From an uncultured Alphaproteobacteria bacterium (GTDB taxonomy: Bacteria; Pseudomonadota; Alphaproteobacteria; HIMB59; GCA-002718135), in the NCBI GenBank assembly GCA_902587565.1, contig CACILT010000002.1:68884-132883 (forward strand): a stretch of DNA of 64,000 bases. Reading direction: 5' to 3'. Within the stretch, counting starts at the first letter, position 1, and every line of letters begins with the position of its first letter. The notes beneath the pieces were generated by a model, which was given only the letters and a program-made list of their open reading frames with translations, ran no database searches and had not been told where the DNA came from. The translations under genes were made by a program, and so were the position numbers. Shown in pieces: positions 1-58,515 of the stretch.

Positions 1-760
1 TTTCTGCAGCTTTAATACTTTCTGGGAATTTTTGGAAGCCTTCTGCAAATATAAGTGCTGCCTCCCTATAATTTTTTTCTAGAATATATAATTCTCCAAG
101 CCAATAATGTGCTGAACCCGATAATTGATTTTGAGGATTATCTGAAATAAACTGTTCAAATGAAGTTTTAGCATCCTGCCATTTTTTATCTCTTATATTA
201 TCAAAGGCTACCTGGAATTGATCTTCAGGTGATAAGACCTCTTCTTTTTCATTAGAATTTACCTCCTGGTCTTCAGATATAAGTTCTTCATTTGTATCAT
301 TTGTGTTTTTTGAAATATTTAATGTTCCAAGTGTATTTTCTGTTTCAGTATCACTTAAAGTATTGCTTTTAACTTCATTACTGTTTTGTGAAGCTTCATC
401 AGTATTTACTTCAATATTATTTAAAGGAACTGATTGTAAATTATTAATGACTAATTCTAAGTTTTCTAACTTATTAAAAATATCATCTAGTTGAAAATAC
501 AATTCCTCTAAGTTAGAGGTTAAATTTTTTATATCATTTTCAATATCATATATTCGCAAATCGATTGCAGAAAGGTTCTGAACAAAATCATTATTTGTGC
601 CACTTGATTGACTTGATGAATTTGAAAATACTTCTTTTGAAAGATCAGAAACTTCTCTCTGTAGTCTTTCTAGTTGCTGCGAAATAGTTAGGTCACTCTC
701 ATTAGAAAAAGCATAACTTGAATAAAATAATATTAAAATAGTAAGTATGTATCTAACCAT
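1..760 (-). CDS. cpoB: Tol-Pal system protein CpoB/YbgF, 3'-truncated by the window edge
   Basis: My own minus-strand translation from ATG at 760 gives MVRYILTILILFYSSYAFS (signal peptide), then a coiled coil (QQLERLQREV...). It ends in a TPR-like C-terminus (SGSAHYWLGELYILEKNYREAALIFAEGFQKFPES). The frame stays open to position 2. The gene sits directly downstream of pal. Confidence 0.75.
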   Translation of the reverse strand, partial: MVRYILTILILFYSSYAFSNESDLTISQQLERLQREVSDLSKEVFSNSSSQSSGTNNDFVQNLSAIDLRIYDIENDIKNLTSNLEELYFQLDDIFNKLENLELVINNLQSVPLNNIEVNTDEASQNSNEVKSNTLSDTETENTLGTLNISKNTNDTNEELISEDQEVNSNEKEEVLSPEDQFQVAFDNIRDKKWQDAKTSFEQFISDNPQNQLSGSAHYWLGELYILEKNYREAALIFAEGFQKFPESIKAAE

Positions 761-795
761 TCAAGGATTTTAATTTCTAAATAAGATAAAAATGT

Positions 796-817
796 GGCGC
801 TATATTTCTATAGCGCC
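796..817 (-). terminator. Stem-loop between pal and cpoB (9-bp stem GGCGCTATA, loop TTTC)
   Basis: Perfect inverted repeat ggcgctata-tttc-tatagcgcc. On the minus strand it is followed by ACATTTTTATC. It is GC-rich relative to its surroundings. Confidence 0.45.
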
Positions 818-837
818 TAGTATTAAGGAATAAATAA

Positions 838-1359
838 TTAATTAACTATGGTTACTGAACGTCTATTTTGAGCCCACGCTCCATCATTCGATCCCACAAC
901 AGCAGGTCTTTCTTTACCATAGCTAATAGTTGAAATTCTATCAGGATTTATTCCTAATCCAATTAAATAATTTTTAACAGCTTGAGCTCTTTTTTCACCA
1001 AGAGCTAGGTTATACTCTCTAGTTCCTCTTTCGTCACAGTGTCCTTCGATTGTAACTGAAACATCACTATTCTGCTTAAGCCATGCAACCTGATCTTGAA
1101 GTAACTCTAGAGCATCAGAATCTAAATCCGAGCTATCATATCCAAAAAATACTCTGTCACCAACATTAACAATTAGATCTTCTTGTGATCCTGAAACAAT
1201 ACCACTTCCAGCAGTTTCGGTTATTGTTCCCTCAGATGATACATCGCTGCTTGTACTATCTGAACCAGATCCTGAAGAATCAGCAGAGTCTTTTGGCGTT
1301 GTTGCACATGCGGCAACGAACAAAACCATAAATATAGAGATAAAAAACTTGTAAAACAT
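838..1359 (-). CDS. pal: Peptidoglycan-associated lipoprotein Pal (OmpA family)
   Basis: Lipobox FVAAC, an S/D-rich linker, and an OmpA-like C-terminus (GHCDERGTREYNLALGEKRA...NRR). Position is downstream of tolB. Confidence 0.9.
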   Translation of the reverse strand: MFYKFFISIFMVLFVAACATTPKDSADSSGSGSDSTSSDVSSEGTITETAGSGIVSGSQEDLIVNVGDRVFFGYDSSDLDSDALELLQDQVAWLKQNSDVSVTIEGHCDERGTREYNLALGEKRAQAVKNYLIGLGINPDRISTISYGKERPAVVGSNDGAWAQNRRSVTIVN

Positions 1360-1460
1360 AAATAAGCGCTCCCTTAATACTTTGTGTAGATATACTAAAT
1401 TATTGTGAGTTTCTTAACATTTTTTTTAAGATTTCGTATATTTTTTTGTATTATATCGAA

Positions 1461-2777
1461 TTAATGCATCAATGGCGACCATGCTGGATCAGATCCGCCT
1501 AAAGGAGTTATAACTTTTCTTTCATTAAAACCAGTCAAATCAATAGAATAAAGACTAGATTCCCCTCCTGATCCATCCTCAGCAGTCCTTTCTTCCTTAA
1601 AGTACATCAAAAATCTACCATTTGGAGCCCATGTTGGTCCTTCAACATGAAATGATTTTGCAATCATTCTTTCATTAGAGCCATCAATCTCCATAACGCC
1701 TATATAAAATTGTCCTCCCTGTTGTTTGGTAAAAGCTATCATATCACCTCTTGGCGACCAGACTGGTGTATAGTAGCTTCCTGCTTCTCTACTAATTCTT
1801 TTAACATTTTTTCCATTATTATCGCTTACATACAAATGTCTTCTTCCACTTCTATCTGAATTAAAAACTATTTTTTTACCATCTGGCGAAAAACTTGCAG
1901 ATACATCTATTGAAGAATTATTTGTTACTCTTTTTGAAATTCGAGTTTTTAAATCAAGAATATAAATTTCAGAATTACCAATTTCTGGGTCAGTGTAAGA
2001 CATGATGATTTTATTACCATCAGGTGAAAAACGTGGAGCAAATGTCATTCCTGGAAATTCCCCAACAATTTCTTGCTTACCAGTTTCAATATCAAAAATG
2101 TAAACTCTAGGATTATTTCTATTTACATATGACATGTATGTAATTTTTTGTGAATTAGGAGAAAACCTTGGAGTTAATACTAGATATGATCCATCTGTTA
2201 AAAAACGATGGTTTGATTGATCTTGATCCATTATTGCTAATCTTTTTTGTTTGTTTTCTTTTGGGCCAGTCTCAGCAACATAAACTATTCTTGTATCAAA
2301 GTATCCACCTTCACCAGTTATGTTTTTAAAAATGGAATCTGAAATAATATGAGCAACTCTTCTCCAATTTTTTTCACTAGTCTCATATTTTTTTCCCACT
2401 ATTTGCTTTTGTTGAAAAACATCAAACAATCTAAATTCTACAGATATTTTTCCATTGTTTTTTGAAATTTTTCCAGAAACTAAATGTTGAGCTTTTATTA
2501 ATTTCCAATCTTCAAAACGTGGTTTATTTGCCAATGATTCATTATCTTGAATAAATGATCTTTGATCAATAGGTAAAAAAAGCCCAGATCTTTCTAAGTT
2601 ATCAGAAATTACAGTTGAAATATTTTTTCCTACTTTAGTTAATTGTGAATTTTTTGAATATAACTCTGTCACAGCAATTGGAGTTGGCTTAACACTACCT
2701 TGTGTTAGAGTCACTTCTAACGAATTGACTTTATAACTAGAAAATAAAAAAAGGGTAATTAAAAAAACTTTTTTCAT
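1461..2777 (-). CDS. tolB: Tol-Pal system beta-propeller protein TolB
   Basis: 438 aa with a signal peptide and repeated FSPDG/WSP propeller motifs (PRFSPDGNKI, FSPDGKKIVF, PVWSPRGD, PTWAPNGR). Sits in tolA-tolB-pal order. Confidence 0.92.
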   Translation of the reverse strand: MKKVFLITLFLFSSYKVNSLEVTLTQGSVKPTPIAVTELYSKNSQLTKVGKNISTVISDNLERSGLFLPIDQRSFIQDNESLANKPRFEDWKLIKAQHLVSGKISKNNGKISVEFRLFDVFQQKQIVGKKYETSEKNWRRVAHIISDSIFKNITGEGGYFDTRIVYVAETGPKENKQKRLAIMDQDQSNHRFLTDGSYLVLTPRFSPNSQKITYMSYVNRNNPRVYIFDIETGKQEIVGEFPGMTFAPRFSPDGNKIIMSYTDPEIGNSEIYILDLKTRISKRVTNNSSIDVSASFSPDGKKIVFNSDRSGRRHLYVSDNNGKNVKRISREAGSYYTPVWSPRGDMIAFTKQQGGQFYIGVMEIDGSNERMIAKSFHVEGPTWAPNGRFLMYFKEERTAEDGSGGESSLYSIDLTGFNERKVITPLGGSDPAWSPLMH

Positions 2778-51988: not shown

Positions 51989-52044
51989 TTAATTAACTTT
52001 ACTAATACAGATTTTTCAAAATTTATATAATAACATTTAATTTT

Positions 52045-52121
52045 TGGCGCGCCTGAGAAGAGTCGAACTCCTAACCTTATGATCCGTAGTCATACGCTCT
52101 ATCCAATTGAGCTACAGGCGC
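52045..52121 (-). tRNA. tRNA-Arg (anticodon ACG)
   Basis: The reverse complement is GCGCCTGTAGCTCAATTGGATAGAGCGTATGACTACGGATCATAAGGTTAGGAGTTCGACTCTTCTCAGGCGCGCCA. It folds as a cloverleaf with anticodon stem TATGA/TCATA and loop CTACGGA. CCA is encoded. Confidence 0.9.
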
Positions 52122-52151: not shown

Positions 52152-52739
52152 ATGCTACTTTATAAAAAAATTAGTATGCGAATTGTAATAGCTATCATTT
52201 TAATTATAATTTTTAGCCAAGTAAGTAATGCAGATATTGGTAAAGAAACTGGTCTAGAAATTCCAAGGTATGTATCTTTAAAATCTAATGATGCAAATAT
52301 TCGTGTTGGCCCAAGTAAGAATTATCCTATTGAAATTAAATTTATAAAAAAAAATTACCCCCTAAAAATATTAGAAGAGTATGAAGATTGGAGAAAAGTA
52401 GAAGATTTTCAGAAAAATTTTGGATGGATTCATAAAAGTTTAATATCCGGTATCAGAACAGGCATTATTTTATCAAATGAAAATAAAACTATAAAATTAT
52501 TAAACACTTTAAACGGTAATGTTATTGGAGAAATAGGAATGGGAAATATTGTTTTTTTAGAAAAATGTAAAATTGATCTGTGCCAAGTGTCATTTGGAAA
52601 TCACAGAGGTTGGATAGATAAAAAACATATTTGGGGTATTAAAGAAAAAGAAACAATTAAAATTAGTTTTTTTCAAAGATTTGAAGATTTATATTGGAAG
52701 AGTATTAATTCTCTAAACAAAATTCAAAAGGGATTTTAA
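52152..52739 (+). CDS. Secreted tandem bacterial SH3-domain protein (DUF1058-like)
   Basis: Signal peptide followed by RYVSLKSNDANIRVGPSKNYPIEIKF...PLKILEEYEDWRKVEDFQKNFGWIHKSL, plus a second SH3b-like repeat. Confidence 0.7.
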   Translation: MLLYKKISMRIVIAIILIIIFSQVSNADIGKETGLEIPRYVSLKSNDANIRVGPSKNYPIEIKFIKKNYPLKILEEYEDWRKVEDFQKNFGWIHKSLISGIRTGIILSNENKTIKLLNTLNGNVIGEIGMGNIVFLEKCKIDLCQVSFGNHRGWIDKKHIWGIKEKETIKISFFQRFEDLYWKSINSLNKIQKGF

Positions 52740-52740
52740 A

Positions 52741-52787
52741 TTTGGCTGGGGCGGTAGGATTCGAACCTACGAATGCCGACTCCAAAA
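52741..52787. repeat. Distal att repeat: orphan copy of tRNA-Gln nt 32-76 plus 2 nt
   Basis: tttggctggggcggtaggattcgaacctacgaatgccgactccaaaa, compared by eye, is identical to 58439..58485. No tRNA 5' half follows it. Confidence 0.92.
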
Positions 52788-52852
52788 GTCTGTGTAACAC
52801 CCTTGAATCGTAGATAAACATTAGCATTCCTTGAATAATTTTTCATTAAAAA

Positions 52853-52881
52853 TTGCCGCGAAGTGAATCCAAAGTGCCGCC
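52853..52881. promoter_or_regulatory. Two TGCCGC-core motifs (TTGCCGCG, GTGCCGCC) 21 bp apart near the distal end; candidate integrase arm-type sites
   Basis: The same GC-rich core, in the same orientation, recurs twice at 58388..58406 next to the other att copy. Confidence 0.35.
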
Positions 52882-53012
52882 AGATTTATAGCTCTATTTG
52901 CTATCTCATTATCCCATTTTGTTAGGATAGATTCATGCATGTTACTACGTTAACAGATAGGTCAAAGGTAAGCGGTTTTGATTCTGTACGGGCAAATTTG
53001 GAATCTTAAACG

Positions 53013-53189
53013 CTATGTTTTAGGGGGTAGGTCGCCATCGCTCCGCGATGATTGTTCATCATTTTTCTTTTTTTTAGGTTGACTTTTTTTAGGCTCGCTA
53101 CCGCTCGCCTTTTTTCTTTTGTAGTGATTGTATGCTTCTTGCCGCGTGATTGGTGCAACAAGATCAGCAATGGTTTTGAGTCTGGTCAT
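53013..53189 (-). CDS. Small basic hypothetical protein (58 aa), last ORF of the element
   Basis: My own translation is MTRLKTIADLVAPITRQEAYNHYKRKKASGSEPKKSQPKKKKNDEQSSRSDGDLPPKT. It falls below the 60-aa cutoff of the ORF track. It is co-oriented with the other island genes. Confidence 0.35.
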   Translation of the reverse strand: MTRLKTIADLVAPITRQEAYNHYKRKKASGSEPKKSQPKKKKNDEQSSRSDGDLPPKT

Positions 53190-53340
53190 AATGTTGTGGT
53201 ACTTATAAAATTAGTTTAATCTCATTAGTGCCCCTACCCTAGCCCCTACCACACCTATATACAGAATTAACATCCATATAATGCTAGTAAAGGCTAAGTT
53301 AGGCACGAACGAACACTCGCTCAAACGCATGGATAAGACA

Positions 53341-53691
53341 TTATAGCGAATGACGTTGAGGTGTATGTGGTTGATGTAATTGTTTTGTTTTATCTTCCAC
53401 AAATTCTCTTATAGCTCTCTTACCCCTAGCTCTACGTGATATCTCTTGAACCGCGCTATAGTAGCCGCAGATGTAGGTCCACTTAGCAACAGACTTTCTA
53501 TCCTTGTCTGCACATATCTCTACTTTAGGTTTTGCTTTCACCAGCGGTTGCATAAGCTCTAGGTGCTCGTGAGCGTATTCTATATCTGATGGTAGCCATG
53601 AATTAACCTCATCAAATAATTTAGATAAAAATTTCTCATCTTTTTTAGAGAGAGAAAACGTATCTGGTTTATTGTTATGTATCCTTCCCAT
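53341..53691 (-). CDS. Hypothetical protein (116 aa), island accessory gene
   Basis: ATG preceded by AAGGAG with a 7-nt spacer. It overlaps the upstream ORF by 17 nt. I recognise no motifs. Confidence 0.55.
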   Translation of the reverse strand: MGRIHNNKPDTFSLSKKDEKFLSKLFDEVNSWLPSDIEYAHEHLELMQPLVKAKPKVEICADKDRKSVAKWTYICGYYSAVQEISRRARGKRAIREFVEDKTKQLHQPHTPQRHSL

Positions 53692-54040
53692 AGTATCTCC
53701 TTTTCCTTGGGTGTTGTTTTGGATTCAAAAATTCCAACTGAGGAATCTTTGCGCTTTCCTCCCGATACTCAGCACGCAATAGTTGCTGAAATTCTTCTGC
53801 TGACTCACAATCAAAGAACACGGTAACCGCACCATAATTATTAATGCCAAAGAAATGTTTACGACCACTCCTCTCGCAATATTCACGGACCAAGTTCATC
53901 CAATCGCCAACAAGCAGACCCGTAACACAATGATAAGCCATGGCACGCTGACCATCCCACTCACTTTCTGTTACTAGTAGTGCTTCATATTCATTCTCGA
54001 ATATCTCTATTGTTTTTTTAGTTATTTTTTTCTTCTTCAT
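53675..54040 (-). CDS. Hypothetical protein (121 aa from the internal ATG), island accessory gene
   Basis: The ATG at 54040 is preceded by AGGAG, which overlaps the primase TAG stop (TAGGAGAATTATG). The longer 132-aa version in the ORF track would overlap the primase gene. I recognise no motifs. Confidence 0.55.
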   Translation of the reverse strand: MKKKKITKKTIEIFENEYEALLVTESEWDGQRAMAYHCVTGLLVGDWMNLVREYCERSGRKHFFGINNYGAVTVFFDCESAEEFQQLLRAEYREESAKIPQLEFLNPKQHPRKRRYYGKDT

Positions 54041-54047
54041 AATTCTC

Positions 54048-56126
54048 CTAATATGGATCTTCTGGTGTTTCACTTACGAATGGAACATGCGCTTTGCTAG
54101 CTAGTGTGCCGTTGCCTTCTGTGTGCAATTCAACATCTGCCGCTAAGTCTGTTGCAGATGTAGCATCCCCAACTTCAAATTTATAACGCATGTGTGCTCT
54201 CATGTAAGTGATCTCGGAACACGTAACCCAATAATCAATATTACGTATCGCCTTGTAGCGTTTACGATTGGTTTTTTTATTTCCTATTATTGATACGGGT
54301 TGATTGTTCCATATTGGTTTAGCACCAATATTCTCTAACCATCGATGGATAGTCATCTCATCAAATCTGTCATACCTTGGCCGCTGTTTATTATCAGCGC
54401 GTTGATCATCCAAGTAACGTAAATGATTTAATATATCCCTCGTGTTAACTATATCTCTATCAAAGACACCAGACCGCTGTTTTAACAAGTCATCTAATTC
54501 TTTAAATGCTTGTGGTCTAGCAATCTGGATTAGTTCTTCTCTTGATGTAGTGTTAATCGGTTCGTTAGGATTGAATGAAGGACTTATCTCTCTATTCTTA
54601 TAATAATTATAAAAATGTTTTATAACTTCATCATTCTCAACGTCTGCCCATAACTTATTAAAATAATCTGGATCATCTTTTAAAAGTTGTTCTCTTGTTA
54701 TTCTAATAATTACAAAAGCTATACGTCTATCTGAACTCTCTGGTTTAATAGGTATATGCTTATTAGAAGATGCCCATAATCTAAAGTGCCCTTTATGATT
54801 AATAGTATCAACATACTTCTGTTCAATCGGATGCATGTCCTCGGTAATAAGTTCCTTTAGCTTATCTAGCTTCTGACCATTACCCGCGCCGCTGATATCA
54901 ATCTCATTACAAAATATGACGTAGCATGATTTCATAAATGATCTGTATTTATCAACTAGGTTGTCTGTATGAACCCAAGCGCAATTATGTTTGCCATAAC
55001 ACTTGTTTAAGAAATGAAACATTAATGTTTTGCCAACACCTTGTGCTGAAGAAAATATCCATGCAAAAGTTCTATTGCGTTCTGGATATTGAAAATCAAA
55101 AGATAATGTATCCTCTAAATATGCAAATGTTGCTTCGTCACCAGCACATAAAACATGCTTCATATGATTTCTAATATTAGCAATCAAATTCATGTCTACG
55201 TTTACAACGGGTGCTATGTAGTTAGGCCTAAACGTATTTAAAAATGTTAATGAACCATCTCTAATGATTTCATCATCACTTGGCCAATAAGCCGTACCAT
55301 CAACACACTCAATCCCTTGCTCATGTAGATATGCAACGGGGGTAACGCGTAGTCTAGTTCTATTCCTTTTATAAAGCAGATTTATATTCTGCTCTTTCAT
55401 CATCTTACGATTGTCTCTATCCCAATAGAGTTTCAAAGAGTCTATGATGTAGACTAAACGTTTACGGGCGATGTCATCATCTATATTTTCCCAACCACTT
55501 CTCTTGTCTGGTGCTTTAGCATTTTCAATTAGCTTACTAATGTTAATGCCATCTGGTATTTCATCAGCGAAATCCCAACCAATAGGAAGTGTATTAGGTA
55601 GATCAATAACACGTGCTTTTACGCCGTATTCCTCATCTAAATGCCACGCTATTTCTTCGGCAGCATCTACTCCGCCTTTATCAGCATCTGGTGCAATAAC
55701 CACGTCTGTAAATCCGCGTAACACGGACCAATCTGTCTTGCGCCAATTCTTACAACCTCCAGACCATGTAGTACAAAATGCATCTGGAAAATATGCTTGC
55801 ATAGCATCAGCAACTTTTTCGCCTTCACCAAATCTAATTTGATGATCTTGGTCTAGCTTCTGTAGCTTGTCTGCGTGAAGCGGCGGGCAATTCTTTATAT
55901 GCTTAGTAACGTTTACAAATTTGTTACCATCATATGAAAATTGGAATATTCTTTTGCTACCATCTTTATTAATATGACGTATCACACCTTTAATGGTCCA
56001 ACCCTCTATAGTTTTGTAGAGCCAATATTTTTTATTATAACGATCTATATCGAATAATTTTAAATATGACGTATCATCATCTGGAAATGGATGCGTATTA
56101 TATTTTTTTAAACATTCAGCAGACAT
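54048..56126 (-). CDS. Toprim-domain DNA primase fused to a P-loop (SF3/D5-like or VirE-like) helicase
   Basis: Toprim motifs are GEGEKVAD and VVIAPDADKGG. Walker A is SSAQGVGKT and Walker B is VIFCNEID. At 692 aa it is typical of satellite, plasmid and phage replicases. Confidence 0.8.
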   Translation of the reverse strand: MSAECLKKYNTHPFPDDDTSYLKLFDIDRYNKKYWLYKTIEGWTIKGVIRHINKDGSKRIFQFSYDGNKFVNVTKHIKNCPPLHADKLQKLDQDHQIRFGEGEKVADAMQAYFPDAFCTTWSGGCKNWRKTDWSVLRGFTDVVIAPDADKGGVDAAEEIAWHLDEEYGVKARVIDLPNTLPIGWDFADEIPDGINISKLIENAKAPDKRSGWENIDDDIARKRLVYIIDSLKLYWDRDNRKMMKEQNINLLYKRNRTRLRVTPVAYLHEQGIECVDGTAYWPSDDEIIRDGSLTFLNTFRPNYIAPVVNVDMNLIANIRNHMKHVLCAGDEATFAYLEDTLSFDFQYPERNRTFAWIFSSAQGVGKTLMFHFLNKCYGKHNCAWVHTDNLVDKYRSFMKSCYVIFCNEIDISGAGNGQKLDKLKELITEDMHPIEQKYVDTINHKGHFRLWASSNKHIPIKPESSDRRIAFVIIRITREQLLKDDPDYFNKLWADVENDEVIKHFYNYYKNREISPSFNPNEPINTTSREELIQIARPQAFKELDDLLKQRSGVFDRDIVNTRDILNHLRYLDDQRADNKQRPRYDRFDEMTIHRWLENIGAKPIWNNQPVSIIGNKKTNRKRYKAIRNIDYWVTCSEITYMRAHMRYKFEVGDATSATDLAADVELHTEGNGTLASKAHVPFVSETPEDPY

Positions 56127-56458
56127 TAGAATAACCTCCTTTTAAAGAAAGCGCCTAACTCTTGCTGATCACAGCAACCGCTCAGACATCTATAGACAAC
56201 AACGTCTCTATATCTTCCGTGTTCGTCTTTATGTTTATTTGAAACAACCTCATTAATAACGAAACTATAATTTTTATCGTTATTTTTATGATTGTGTGAG
56301 AGTGGACAGCGGCAGATGTAGCCACCATCTTTTTTCTTATGATCTGGCAGATGCTTCATATGATCATCTAGGCCAAACCATTTATTATTTTTAGTAGATG
56401 TGTTATTATTATTTCTACTAAAACTTCTATTTAGTTTCGACATAATCGTTAATCCCAT
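56126..56458 (-). CDS. Stand-alone primase-type zinc-finger protein (CHC2-like)
   Basis: YICRCPLSHNHKNNDKNYSFVI resembles the CPxHxDxxPSLxI zinc finger of primases. A second Cys pair is present (RCLSGCC). Its stop overlaps the primase ATG (TAATG). Confidence 0.55.
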   Translation of the reverse strand: MGLTIMSKLNRSFSRNNNNTSTKNNKWFGLDDHMKHLPDHKKKDGGYICRCPLSHNHKNNDKNYSFVINEVVSNKHKDEHGRYRDVVVYRCLSGCCDQQELGAFFKRRLF

Positions 56459-56496
56459 GCTCCGTTACCAGCGGGGCATTTTCTTTTTACAAGAAA

Positions 56497-56679
56497 TTAT
56501 TTTTTGTTTTTGTCCTCCAAATATTCTTGAACCTTTTGCAGATCATAACGGACCGCTGATCTTGGACCAGATACCTTATAATAAGGAATGCCATCATCTT
56601 TCATGCGGTTTCTACGTAGTGTGTGAACACTTACGTTGAGTCTGTCTGCTAGTGTGTTTTCATCAACTAGTCTGTTCAT
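56497..56679 (-). CDS. AlpA/excisionase-family helix-turn-helix protein
   Basis: 60 aa. LADRLNVSVHTLRRNRMKDDGIPYYKVSGPRSAVRYDLQKVQEYL is the pattern of the MerR-like excisionase/AlpA HTH. Confidence 0.7.
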   Translation of the reverse strand: MNRLVDENTLADRLNVSVHTLRRNRMKDDGIPYYKVSGPRSAVRYDLQKVQEYLEDKNKK

Positions 56680-56718
56680 TTTATTTTTCCTTCAACAACA
56701 ATGGTAAGTTAAGTTTTA

Positions 56719-56744
56719 ATCACGTGATACTCACATCACATGAT
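56719..56744. promoter_or_regulatory. Tandem near-palindromic boxes ATCACGTGAT and ATCACATGAT (16 bp centre to centre) upstream of the alpA-like gene
   Basis: Read directly from the sequence. They lie 40-65 bp upstream of the ATG at 56679, on the transcribed side. Confidence 0.45.
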
Positions 56745-56995
56745 GTTACTTTCTACTTTCGGCTTTCTCTATGATCGGGATTTATTTTTTTTGTCTACGT
56801 GAGTTATAATTCCAAAAGTTTCTCACTAATGCTTTAGTTGCTAAAGCTGATTAATAATTAATTACGATTCAAAATATTGCAATAAAAAATATTATCTTTT
56901 TTTTATGGGATAAAAATATTTCACAAAATAAAACCAAACAATCCAGATGCGTTACTTGTGTTACCTCGTGTTACTTGGGCCAAGTTACAAGTAAC
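56745..56995. other. Putative replication origin: GTTACYT iterons bracketing an AT-rich tract
   Basis: GTTACTT at 56745, 56951 and 56970; GTTACCT at 56960; palindrome GTTACAAGTAAC at 56984..56995. These flank a strongly AT-rich stretch at about 56850..56940. Confidence 0.4.
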
Positions 56996-57156
56996 ATAGA
57001 GTATCTTTTTAGGCACGCGGCACAAGGATCACCGCTAATTATTATTCCTATAGGGCTCTTTCGAAGAGCTTCCAATTTGTACGGGCCTACACAATGTCTG
57101 CACATCTTCGCCGTGTAGTTTTTCCTTTTATCTTCTCTCGTTTTTTTCTTGTGCAC
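56971..57156 (-). CDS. Possible small zinc-ribbon protein (CxxC...CxxC)
   Basis: 61 aa with a GTG start, CRHC and CAAC 24 residues apart, and a basic N-terminus. No clear RBS, so coding status is uncertain. Confidence 0.3.
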   Translation of the reverse strand: MHKKKTREDKRKNYTAKMCRHCVGPYKLEALRKSPIGIIISGDPCAACLKRYSMLLVTWPK

Positions 57157-57365
57157 GGGTTACACGCCTTTCTTTTAAAACTTTAATGGGATCAACTTAG
57201 AGTCAGCGTAATAAAAAAAAGTTTTGAAGGGATGTGCGGCCGTGCAAGTGTGCAACAGCCGCAACATTATTTAATAATTTAAAAGAAATACCAATGGATG
57301 ATATAAATTAATCCAACCCACCAGATAATATTTCCCGCCAACCAACAAATGAAACCAAACATAAA

Positions 57366-58373
57366 TCATGCCCTCGTTTTCATTTTCTTTGCTAAGTGCT
57401 TAGCTTGAATATGAGTATAGCGTTTTAATGATGCCAGACTCGACCAGCCACCTTGTGCAGATAGTTCAGCAATAGACCAATCACTTTCTGCTAGATCAGT
57501 AGCACCTTGATGGCGTAATCTATGAAAAGTAAATACACCTTCAAGTTCGGCAGCTCTCAGCACCTTGCGCCAATAAGAATTGAAGCCGTTAACATTACAT
57601 GGAAAAAATCTACCATCAGTTGACCTAGGTAGAGACCTCAACGTTGCTATTGCTAACGGACTTAGACCAATCTCTCTTGGCTTTTTAGTTTTGGTAATGT
57701 TTATGCGTGCAGTTGCTTGCTCCCAGTTAACGTCTTGCCACTTCAGCCGCAAGAGCTCGCCCCTTCTGCAAAGTGTTTCTCTTGCAACAATTACAATCTC
57801 TTTCATAAAATATAGATTGCTCTTTGCACAAACCACCAACAGCTTCCGCCATTCTTCCCTAGTAAGTATACGATCAATCGGCGGTGGTTCAGCAGGCATT
57901 TTTATTGTGCCTACAGGGTTAACAGTAATTGGAATATTATGCTCAGCTTTAACTTTATTGATAGCTCTAGAGAACATCATCAGATACTTTTTTACAGTAG
58001 CATTTGACCTACCCTCTTCCTCTAGCTCATGATCCCTAAACTTAGCTAATACACTACCCGTGATGTCGGATAGATACATATTGCCAATCGGTTTTTTTGA
58101 CAAATGATCAATTAAGTATTTCTCTTTCTTATGATCAGTTGAATTTAGAACTAGGTATTTTTCATAATAAATATTTAATACCTCTTTCAGTTTAATATCA
58201 GATAATCTTTCTGCTTCTTGTACACGTCTATATGTACCCGTTTCTATTTGAGCTTCTGTTTTATAGGCCCACGCAGATGCATCTGACTTCTTCCAAAATG
58301 ACTTAACGACTCGTATACCTTTCTTACGAACATGCGCTTGCCACTTTTTATAATGCTTATTAATTGTAGCCAT
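57366..58373 (-). CDS. int: Tyrosine recombinase / phage-type integrase
   Basis: 335 aa. Box I context is CRRGELLRLKWQDV, HRLRHQGATDL supplies H-x-x-R, and the catalytic Tyr sits in LKRYTHI. It lies immediately downstream of the intact tRNA-Gln. Confidence 0.92.
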   Translation of the reverse strand: MATINKHYKKWQAHVRKKGIRVVKSFWKKSDASAWAYKTEAQIETGTYRRVQEAERLSDIKLKEVLNIYYEKYLVLNSTDHKKEKYLIDHLSKKPIGNMYLSDITGSVLAKFRDHELEEEGRSNATVKKYLMMFSRAINKVKAEHNIPITVNPVGTIKMPAEPPPIDRILTREEWRKLLVVCAKSNLYFMKEIVIVARETLCRRGELLRLKWQDVNWEQATARINITKTKKPREIGLSPLAIATLRSLPRSTDGRFFPCNVNGFNSYWRKVLRAAELEGVFTFHRLRHQGATDLAESDWSIAELSAQGGWSSLASLKRYTHIQAKHLAKKMKTRA

Positions 58374-58387
58374 TTCTTCCTTTCTAA

Positions 58388-58406
58388 GTGCCGCGTATGT
58401 GCCGCG
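58388..58406. promoter_or_regulatory. Direct repeat GTGCCGCG-N3-GTGCCGCG between int and the att core; candidate arm-type integrase sites or int operator
   Basis: Two identical octamers with 11-bp periodicity, 15 bp upstream of the int ATG and 33 bp from the att core. Related copies lie at 52853..52881. Confidence 0.4.
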
Positions 58407-58438
58407 AACACGTTCAATTCAGAATGCTACTATGATTT

Positions 58439-58485
58439 TTTGGCTGGGGCGGTAGGATTCGAACCTACGAATGCCGACTCCAAAA
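58439..58485. repeat. Proximal att repeat (inside the tRNA-Gln gene)
   Basis: Identical to 52741..52787. Confidence 0.92.
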
Positions 58486-58515
58486 ACCGGTGCCTTACCG
58501 CTTGGCGACGCCCCA
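58441..58515 (-). tRNA. tRNA-Gln (anticodon UUG)
   Basis: The reverse complement is TGGGGCGTCGCCAAGCGGTAAGGCACCGGTTTTTGGAGTCGGCATTCGTAGGTTCGAATCCTACCGCCCCAGCCA. It has the U1-A72 pair and G73 typical of bacterial tRNA-Gln and the anticodon loop TTTTGGA. It resembles E. coli tRNA-Gln. Confidence 0.9.

Follow-up and report, generated by a model that had tools for sequence, protein, structure and literature searches.

The closest described counterparts of the element considered here are the virion-encapsidated integrative mobile elements (VEIMEs) of marine bacterioplankton and the PICMIs (phage-inducible chromosomal minimalist islands) of the Vibrionaceae. The element lies in a tRNA-Gln gene within a 64,000-nucleotide (nt) stretch of contig CACILT010000002.1 from an uncultured alphaproteobacterium (the whole stretch is called the window, and its positions are used throughout), and the analysis concerns the three small open reading frames (ORF1-ORF3) that follow its primase-helicase gene, the first two of which appear to belong to the conserved core of the element. 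In Pelagibacter, VEIMEs sit next to tRNAs, encode a primase and a tyrosine recombinase beside genes labelled "conserved unknown", and have their concatemers packaged without capsid genes (PMC9618062; PMC11876622). The present element resembles those that Eppley et al. described in 2022 (PMC9618062; modules 2, 6 and 8, associated with Pelagibacter) as a small, tRNA-adjacent integrative element of a SAR11-like genome with a tyrosine integrase, an AlpA-like helix-turn-helix (HTH) protein, a primase/helicase, no capsid genes, many genes without homologues, and circular or concatemer junctions in virus-size-fraction metagenomes. Like them, it has an integrase, an integrated copy in a bacterial genome (here flanked by 54-nt attachment (att) repeats), and no capsid or structural genes. 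However, encapsidated concatemers are known for VEIMEs, whereas the evidence here consists of assembly junctions and one contig of 1.5 copies; the published work contains no description of a conserved primase-A-B module (A and B being the families of ORF1 and ORF2), and the element could not be mapped to any of the published VEIME modules.

The likeness to the PICMIs (Barcia-Cruz et al. 2024, PMC10803314) extends to size (6.1 kb versus 5.7 kb here), to the order int - small ORF - alpA - small ORF - DUF5906-type primase - unknown gene(s) - att, and to the lack of capsid-remodelling or terS genes. The combination that constitutes the SatelliteFinder PICMI model (int, AlpA and a DUF3987/DUF5906 primase) is present (Phage_integrase 1e-24; DUF5906 3.9e-15; HTH_17 3e-4, below cut-off), and the PICMI gene "iolg", which follows the integrase and is required for excision in PICMIs, has the same position as a 61-amino-acid (aa) CxxC ORF of this element. 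In contrast, PICMIs integrate at fis, while this element occupies the tRNA-Gln(UUG) of an AT-rich (21-30% GC) SAR11-like host, and the prim-att interval of PICMIs is a variable defence hotspot (up2), whereas here it holds a conserved and apparently coupled gene pair in all relatives. P4-like satellites and Gram-negative phage-inducible chromosomal islands (PICIs) also insert into tRNAs by means of a tyrosine integrase and encode both an AlpA-type regulator and a primase-helicase of the P4-alpha type, but the element lacks psu/delta/sid, cos-linked genes, terS, rpp and capsid genes and is half their size or less. The tycheposons (Hackl et al.; bioRxiv 10.1101/2020.12.28.424599) of Prochlorococcus, an oligotroph of the sea whose genome is likewise streamlined, combine a tyrosine recombinase with a primase/helicase-type replication module and lie at a tRNA, but they are larger and carry variable metabolic cargo, for which the present element has essentially no space.

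A conserved gene pair behind the primase

A sequence-only reading of the window had described ORFs of 121, 116 and 58 aa after the primase-helicase, the first two with AGGAG ribosome-binding sites, a 17-nt overlap and translational coupling, and had assigned them to an accessory slot. The three ORFs are present on the minus strand (Table 1). ORF1 starts 7 nt past the primase stop codon, which is the TAG in its upstream region (TAGGAGaattATG) and which itself forms part of the AGGAG ribosome-binding site, the start region reading cca-tat-TAG-GAG-aatt-ATG; ORF2 is preceded by AAGGAGatactATG (AGGAG) and overlaps ORF1 at 53675-53691. From this arrangement, which bears out the earlier description, ORF1 and ORF2 appear to be translationally coupled both to the primase and to each other. 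A 132-aa GTG extension of ORF1 to 54073 receives no support from the homologues, and in most metagenome contigs a 3-nt deletion in the lysine-codon run at 54030-54035 shortens the N-terminus to give 120 rather than 121 aa. The homologues of ORF1 and ORF2 show ratios of nonsynonymous to synonymous substitution (dN/dS) of 0.11-0.23 and 0.14, respectively, so both are more than chance ORFs; the primase has 0.19, and purifying selection on the pair equals that on the primase. The sequence was found in no metatranscriptome run.

The same arrangement recurs well beyond the window. A small A ORF (99-150 aa) and an overlapping B ORF (116-279 aa) come after the primase in all eight lineages that were identified through that gene (primase identity 37-100%), and an all-against-all comparison sorts these ORFs into A1 (the window and loci L002, L009 and L006), A2/A3, B1 (the window, L009 and L006) and B2. 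A scan of Joint Genome Institute (JGI) metagenomes with the B1 profile yielded 21 loci, of which 19 extend far enough upstream to be informative; in 18 of these a DUF5906 primase immediately precedes B1, with primase identities down to 25-38%, and the contigs concerned (5.2-7.4 kb) also carry int, xis and the zinc-finger gene. In ~17 diverged lineages with primase identities of 25-100%, the place behind the primase is always taken by a small overlapping A-B pair of this kind. The A position is filled either by the alpha/beta A1 type or by an unrelated charged type of 78-104 aa, whose start codon overlaps the primase stop, and no profile similarity was detected between A1 and A2/A3. On the strength of this synteny, B can be regarded as the constant partner of this primase lineage and A as exchangeable, with at least two unrelated forms.

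Homologues of ORF1 and ORF2, a few of each of which were detected in ENA metagenomes, are confined to related elements of 5-7 kb. An exhaustive HMMER search with the ORF2 profile returned only seven small homologues (P0004, P0021-24, P0027 and P0030) among 1.84 billion representatives, the long matches (e.g., P0026) being ankyrin-repeat false positives, and no relatives were found in IMG/VR (single proteins and profiles), in GTDB representative genomes (primase and B1 profiles) or in GenBank phages (tblastn, ORF1 and ORF2). The available loci thus suggest that ORF1 and ORF2 constitute a family-specific conserved core module rather than a variable cargo slot; in related elements the ORFs are conserved and not disrupted, and the comparison does not support the assignment to an accessory slot. 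Two relatives (L002 and L024) are mosaic, with an ORF1 homologue 65% identical to that of the window and an overlapping ORF2 homologue 96-97% identical, a difference implying that recombination broke the sequence where ORF1 meets ORF2; in L024 the integrase differs as well.

No recognisable motif had been seen in the three ORFs, and this impression held: Pfam, PHROGs, PADLOC and NCBIfam gave nothing significant for them or for 10-12 diverged relatives, and no housekeeping phage protein was matched. Sequence profiles of the Protein Data Bank (PDB) compared with alignments of 3 to 12 members returned noise only, the DARPin/ankyrin and IbpA matches among them being one-helix similarities. Structure prediction followed by Foldseek, as the sequence-only reading had suggested, pointed to no function. 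AlphaFold2 (AF2) runs from shallow alignments predicted a beta-alpha-beta-beta-alpha core for ORF1 (mean predicted local distance difference test score, pLDDT, 49.7) and an all-alpha protein for ORF2 with three helices, the last one long and basic (pLDDT 52.6), and with these low-confidence models Foldseek found nothing better than E=0.16 in PDB and BFVD; a resemblance of ORF1 to the ferredoxin-like fold and IS608 TnpA was not significant. Eight aligned, diverged members of the ORF1 family share the invariant residues D29, H37, G41, W47, Y54, R60, F64, N67, F76, D77 and E83, and ORF2 has a basic N-terminus, the conserved motif D-x-L-x-L-M-Q-x-L-V-K-A-x-P-x-F-E-I-T...G-[YF]-[YF]-S-A-[IV]-Q and a conserved extreme C-terminal peptide (..NKGI or PQRHSL).

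ORF3 and the conserved non-coding DNA

The frame, start and stop of ORF3 are kept in seven variants that differ by in-frame indels of one and four codons, and the N-terminal 25 codons show synonymous leucine switches (TTA to or from CTT/CTC) together with conservative replacements, with variable columns distributed 23/17/30 over the three codon positions. On this evidence ORF3 is most likely translated; no Shine-Dalgarno sequence precedes it. Its dS is only 0.36, compared with 1.3-1.7 in the neighbouring genes, and its dN/dS is 0.48, values that indicate an additional constraint at the nucleotide level. The 3' two-thirds of the gene overlaps conserved nucleotide-level signals, which were absent from the earlier description of the ORFs.

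Conservation of the non-coding DNA immediately downstream of B far exceeds that of the genes, and this DNA travels with B and C (ORF3) even where the integrase differs (L024). The window at ~53190-53315 is ~97% identical to L009, whose genes are ~70% identical, and the block after ORF2 is ~80% identical in the distant element L006, whose B protein is only 22% identical and with which an intergenic core (53244-53312) is shared. The octamer GCCCCTAC (GTAGGGGC on the gene strand) occurs twice in the ORF2-ORF3 block, at 53230-37 and 53242-49, 12 nt apart; the octamer pair is also present in L006 and L007, there in the int-xis intergenic region. Within ORF3, the 43-nt block at 53078-53120 is invariant in six variants (the window, L009, L022, L023, L025 and L026 are listed), with a single substitution (A to C) recorded in L022, L023 and L024, and L024 keeps the block despite divergent flanks and a different integrase. 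On its minus strand the block holds the direct repeat GCGAGC-N4-GCGAGC; an alternative reading of this repeat is an imperfect antisense hairpin (53092-53109) that has a TACC loop and is followed by a T-run. L036 has a perfect TACC-loop hairpin and T-run at the equivalent place. These invariant repeats are candidate protein-binding sites, perhaps of an origin (ori) or packaging site (pac).

Stem-GGA-stem hairpins were counted in 15 elements over the region from the B stop to the start of int, where 11 were present compared with 0.18 in shuffled sequences. Three of the 11 hits come from two distinct sites that resemble a tRNA-Ser anticodon arm in the att core, one of them being shared by L015 and L024. 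The nine non-tRNA sites (the window, L009, L022, L024 twice, L036, L041 and L042 twice) all carry GGA on the gene-sense strand with an A-rich tract ahead, and on the opposite strand each reads as a hairpin and then a T-run, in the manner of an intrinsic terminator that points from the att side into the element; the imperfect TACC-loop hairpin is a second one of this kind in the window. Enrichment over shuffles is the valid test here, pair counts being circular because instances were selected for pairing; the window copies are thermodynamically weak and not unusual (z -0.85), so support for the hairpins is comparative only. A host gene of 195 aa (52152-52739, plus strand) ends 2 nt short of the att core and points into the element, and read-through from it would run antisense to ORF3, ORF2 and ORF1. 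Such read-through may explain the terminator-like hairpins, which probably insulate the element against read-in from the host gene or form the 3' end of an antisense RNA.

The element and its extrachromosomal forms

ORF1-ORF3 sit inside a 5,698-bp element at window positions 52741-58492 that is integrated in tRNA-Gln, whose 3' part forms the right att copy; the core common to both copies is 47 nt (52741-52787). GC content jumps from 21-30% outside to 35-43% within. All genes point in one direction, in the order int, 61-aa CxxC ORF, AlpA/Xis-like HTH, zinc finger, primase-helicase, ORF1, ORF2 and ORF3 (Table 1). Since the gaps from the HTH gene through ORF2 are at most 38 nt or are overlaps, this stretch would form one operon; a sigma-70 promoter scan was not above shuffles, and Rfam found nothing beyond the two tRNAs. 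None of the eight element ORFs matches a capsid, structural or terminase gene in Pfam or PHROGs. The zinc-finger protein is likely the primase zinc-binding domain encoded separately: it is kept at 44-61% identity in all relatives, its stop overlaps the primase-helicase start, and in L027 and L028 the zinc finger forms part of a longer protein of 265-281 aa.

Table 1. Features of the element and its borders, in window coordinates
Feature	Position	Strand	Evidence or remark
attL, displaced 3' part of tRNA-Gln	52741-52794	.	54-nt direct repeat of 58439-58492, spacing 5698 nt
att-proximal non-coding arm, conserved blocks	52795-53012	.	83-87% identity to L009 versus ~70% over genes
ORF3, 58 aa, isoelectric point (pI) 10.1	53013-53189	-	No ribosome-binding site; open in 7 variants
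Antisense terminator-like hairpin 1	53036-53075	+	Scan; CATCGC-TCC-GCGATG (53036-53050), small second stem, T-run (53062-53075)
Invariant 43-nt block within ORF3	53078-53120	.	Plus strand GTTGAC T7 A GGCTCGC-TACC-GCTCGCC T6 C T4
Conserved ORF2-ORF3 intergenic block	53190-53340	.	Compared with L009 and L006
ORF2 (family B1), 116 aa, pI 9.4	53341-53691	-	Homologues P0004-6; 21 metagenome loci
ORF1 (family A1), 121 aa from ATG, pI 7.7	53675-54040	-	Homologues P0001-3
Primase-helicase, 692 aa, Toprim-like N-terminus and DUF5906/VapE helicase	54048-56126	-	Pfam 3.9e-15; PHROG DNA primase 1.2e-21
Zinc-finger protein, 105-110 aa, separately encoded	56126-56458	-	Weak PHROG primase N-terminus match, 0.005
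AlpA/Xis-like HTH, 60 aa	56497-56679	-	HTH_17 3e-4, below Pfam cut-off; PHROG excisionase/regulator 1e-5
Basic ORF, 61 aa, two CxxC pairs, GTG start, between int and xis	56971-57156	-	Kept in L022 (87%) and L024 (73%)
Tyrosine integrase, 335 aa	57366-58373	-	Phage_integrase 1.1e-24; phrog_1 2.6e-57
tRNA-Gln(UUG), integration target; attR core 58439-58492	58441-58515	-	ARAGORN, Rfam, repeat

The suggestion that this is a satellite-like tRNA island agrees with the presence of circular or concatemer junctions in Tara virome contigs. Stand-alone contigs of 5.4-6.7 kb carry the primase homologues P0007-20, and one contig from a Tara run (L003, PRJEB4419; 5,825 bp), which is 99.3% identical to the window element, has a 127-nt terminal overlap that reduces it to a unit of 5,698 bp and joins window 52741 to 58485 via a single 47-nt core. 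The junction is also present in L004, and when contigs of four seawater runs were mapped to the window the joint 58438 to 52741, going back 5698 nt, appeared in three of the four (X2-X4), with a depth of 10-130 over the element versus 0-3.8 over the left host flank. L003, L007, L009, L014 and L016 all derive from PRJEB4419, the Tara <0.22 um viromes, and a further relative (L013) was assembled as 1.5 tandem copies. Assembly junctions of this kind are compatible with both circles and concatemers, and with both capsids and vesicles. By its anatomy and its circular or concatemeric presence in the virus-size fraction, the element reads as a VEIME/PICMI-like marine phage satellite.

Other observations concern the control region and the attachment sites. 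A non-coding stretch of ~90 nt just downstream of the integrase stop (57278-57367) is 81-83% identical in L006, L012 and L014, and L015 matches 57279-57483 at 71%, extending into the integrase 3' end; the proteins of these elements are only 45-66% identical, and the stretch may be a regulatory or cis-acting site in an int-to-xis control region. A tRNA-Arg (ACG) lies at 52045-52121, ~6 kb from the tRNA-Gln target, and stretches of 56-59 nt that are 86-88% identical to its region (52041-52099) occur in L006 (6025-6080), L014 (432-487) and L016 (33-91). Because such tRNA-Arg-like stretches are carried, these relatives appear to use tRNA-Arg as att, compared with tRNA-Gln for the window element and L009. 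By eye, the plus strand at 52965-52995 (GGTAAGCGGTTTTGATTCTGT) resembles the D-arm/anticodon-arm of tRNA-Gln(UUG) in the orientation opposite to the resident tRNA; it is kept in L009, L022 and L036 and is called by neither ARAGORN nor Rfam.

Competing explanations and their meaning

The reading preferred here, held with evenly balanced confidence, is that ORF1-ORF3 are genuine genes of a minimal satellite and that A and B form a core module that works with the primase on the adjacent conserved DNA. That the genes are real, conserved and syntenic, that a circular form exists and that known domains are absent is established here; the functions of A, B and C that follow are ones that we infer. 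ORF1 (A) and ORF2 (B) would be the last two cistrons of an alpA/xis - zinc-finger - primase-helicase operon, and B, a small basic protein predicted to be all-helical, would act together with the primase-helicase on the conserved DNA just downstream (53078-53340), which would serve as an origin-like or packaging-recognition region. The element would be amplified and then loaded as concatemers into helper capsids, with A, the exchangeable partner, supplying specificity or adaptation. ORF3 would be a small basic protein whose gene also carries the antisense terminator-like hairpins, insulating the element or ending an antisense RNA.

Several observations weigh against this reading. Neither homology nor the predicted structures support any biochemical function for ORF1 or ORF2, and it is from size-fraction metagenomes that the encapsidation of the element is deduced. 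Neither a helper phage nor any matching phage sequence turned up in GenBank phages or in IMG/VR motif scans: blastn of the non-coding region against GenBank phages gave no match, and in exact scans of IMG/VR the seven matches to an invariant 18-mer and the single match to a conserved 20-mer had unrelated flanks and were attributed to chance. The conserved non-coding DNA could stem from recent recombination, mosaicism being evident. B1 and B2 share a motif region at an hhalign P of 0.01-0.05, so that homology between them is only suggestive and what looks like "one conserved B gene" may comprise two alternative cassettes. One locus among the 19 (L029) has an A1-B1 pair without the primase; an unrelated 643-aa autotransporter-like ORF (383-2314, minus strand) lies there on the other strand from A1-B1, and the locus reflects either the decay or rearrangement of an element or a chimera produced in assembly. 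Finally, transfer of PICMI115 does not require up1 and up2, the genes on either side of its prim, and up2 serves in defence (PMC10803314).

There are two other views of the pair. As accessory cargo, ORF1 and ORF2 would make up a new toxin-antitoxin pair, or a new pair for defence against phages, in a prim-att hotspot, like PICMI115 up2, which protects against non-helper phages (PMC10803314). The existence of alternative A and B families would fit this, as would two small, adjacent, overlapping genes, one product near-neutral and the other basic, an arrangement shared with type II toxin-antitoxin systems; however, neither a known superfamily of such systems nor an autonomous, autoregulated operon was found, no known toxin or antitoxin domain was detected in ORF1, ORF2 or diverged members (Pfam, NCBIfam, PADLOC), and ORF1, starting where the primase ends, leaves the pair without a promoter of its own. 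A weak, partial match of ORF2 to the PADLOC candidate PDC-M35B (8e-4, 40 aa) recurs in only 2 of 12 family members and was dismissed as chance, and A1 members match no defence model. With B1 never outside these elements and the same architecture in place of hotspot-like variability, cargo is distinctly unlikely, and the defence or toxin-antitoxin role once proposed for the ORFs finds no matching model in the family. Alternatively, A and B may be helper-directed hijack proteins that contact the small terminase, portal, capsid or late regulator of a pelagiphage and redirect packaging to the satellite or tune helper expression, as Rpp/Ppi/TerS do in PICIs and Staphylococcus aureus pathogenicity islands (SaPIs) and Delta/Psu/Sid in P4. 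This would account for the presence in the virus fraction of an element with no terS or capsid genes of its own and for the swapping of A between unrelated types while B stays, as expected when adapting to different helpers; the conserved C-terminal motif of B suggests a docking peptide, and SaPIs and PICIs generally hold packaging-interference genes at the distal end of the element. Nevertheless, B1 and B2 members gave no Terminase_* or PHROG packaging match, neither the element ORFs nor the A and B proteins of relatives matched terS, rpp, cpm, sid, psu or delta, there is no similarity to the TerS, Rpp, Ppi, Sid, Psu or Delta families and no PHROG at E<0.1, homologues are absent from phage genomes, and no helper is known. 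Tight operon coupling to the primase suggests instead an early, replication-linked expression, by analogy with alpA-up1-prim, the early regulon of PICMIs (PMC10803314), and we consider the hijack role fairly unlikely.

For ORF3, the contrasting view is that it is not a functional protein gene, its open frame being a by-product of a non-coding region made up of antisense terminators, a possible antisense RNA or protein-binding repeats. The low dS and the dN/dS of 0.48, the invariance of the 43-nt block at third codon positions as well, the missing ribosome-binding site, a lysine-rich middle that is the complement of T-runs, and a hairpin motif kept with different stems all point in that direction. 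The maintenance of frame, start and stop through in-frame indels and the codon-level pattern of change in the N-terminal part argue for a protein, and a purely non-coding ORF3 seems unlikely. Broader still is the proposal that primase, A and B together with the downstream invariant DNA and hairpins form an undescribed, self-contained module that lets the element make concatemers and be recognised for headful packaging by pelagiphages, without a terminase or capsid gene of its own. In it, B could for instance be a pac or ori adaptor that binds the GCGAGC-N4-GCGAGC or GTAGGGGC repeats, and A1 a new small enzyme with a ferredoxin fold (invariant D29, H37, Y54, D77 and E83); this is speculative and very improbable. 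In a related scenario, a P4-CI-like regulatory RNA would be marked by the antisense terminators.

Few cells in the ocean are as abundant as SAR11 bacteria, and the small satellites of their phages are known from viromes and functionally unexplored. Elements of this kind had been described and were expected to hold unknown genes; new here are the definition of two protein families that go with this primase lineage, the apparent core status of both, and the conserved DNA and hairpin signals beside them. Five of the eight genes of the element have evident roles (integrase, Xis/AlpA, primase zinc finger, primase-helicase and possibly the CxxC protein), so that satellite functions such as helper sensing, concatemer formation, and packaging recognition or interference would have to be encoded in ORF1/ORF2, ORF3 and the adjoining DNA. 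The status of the A-B pair as core rather than cargo would thus narrow the search for a minimal hijacking mechanism.

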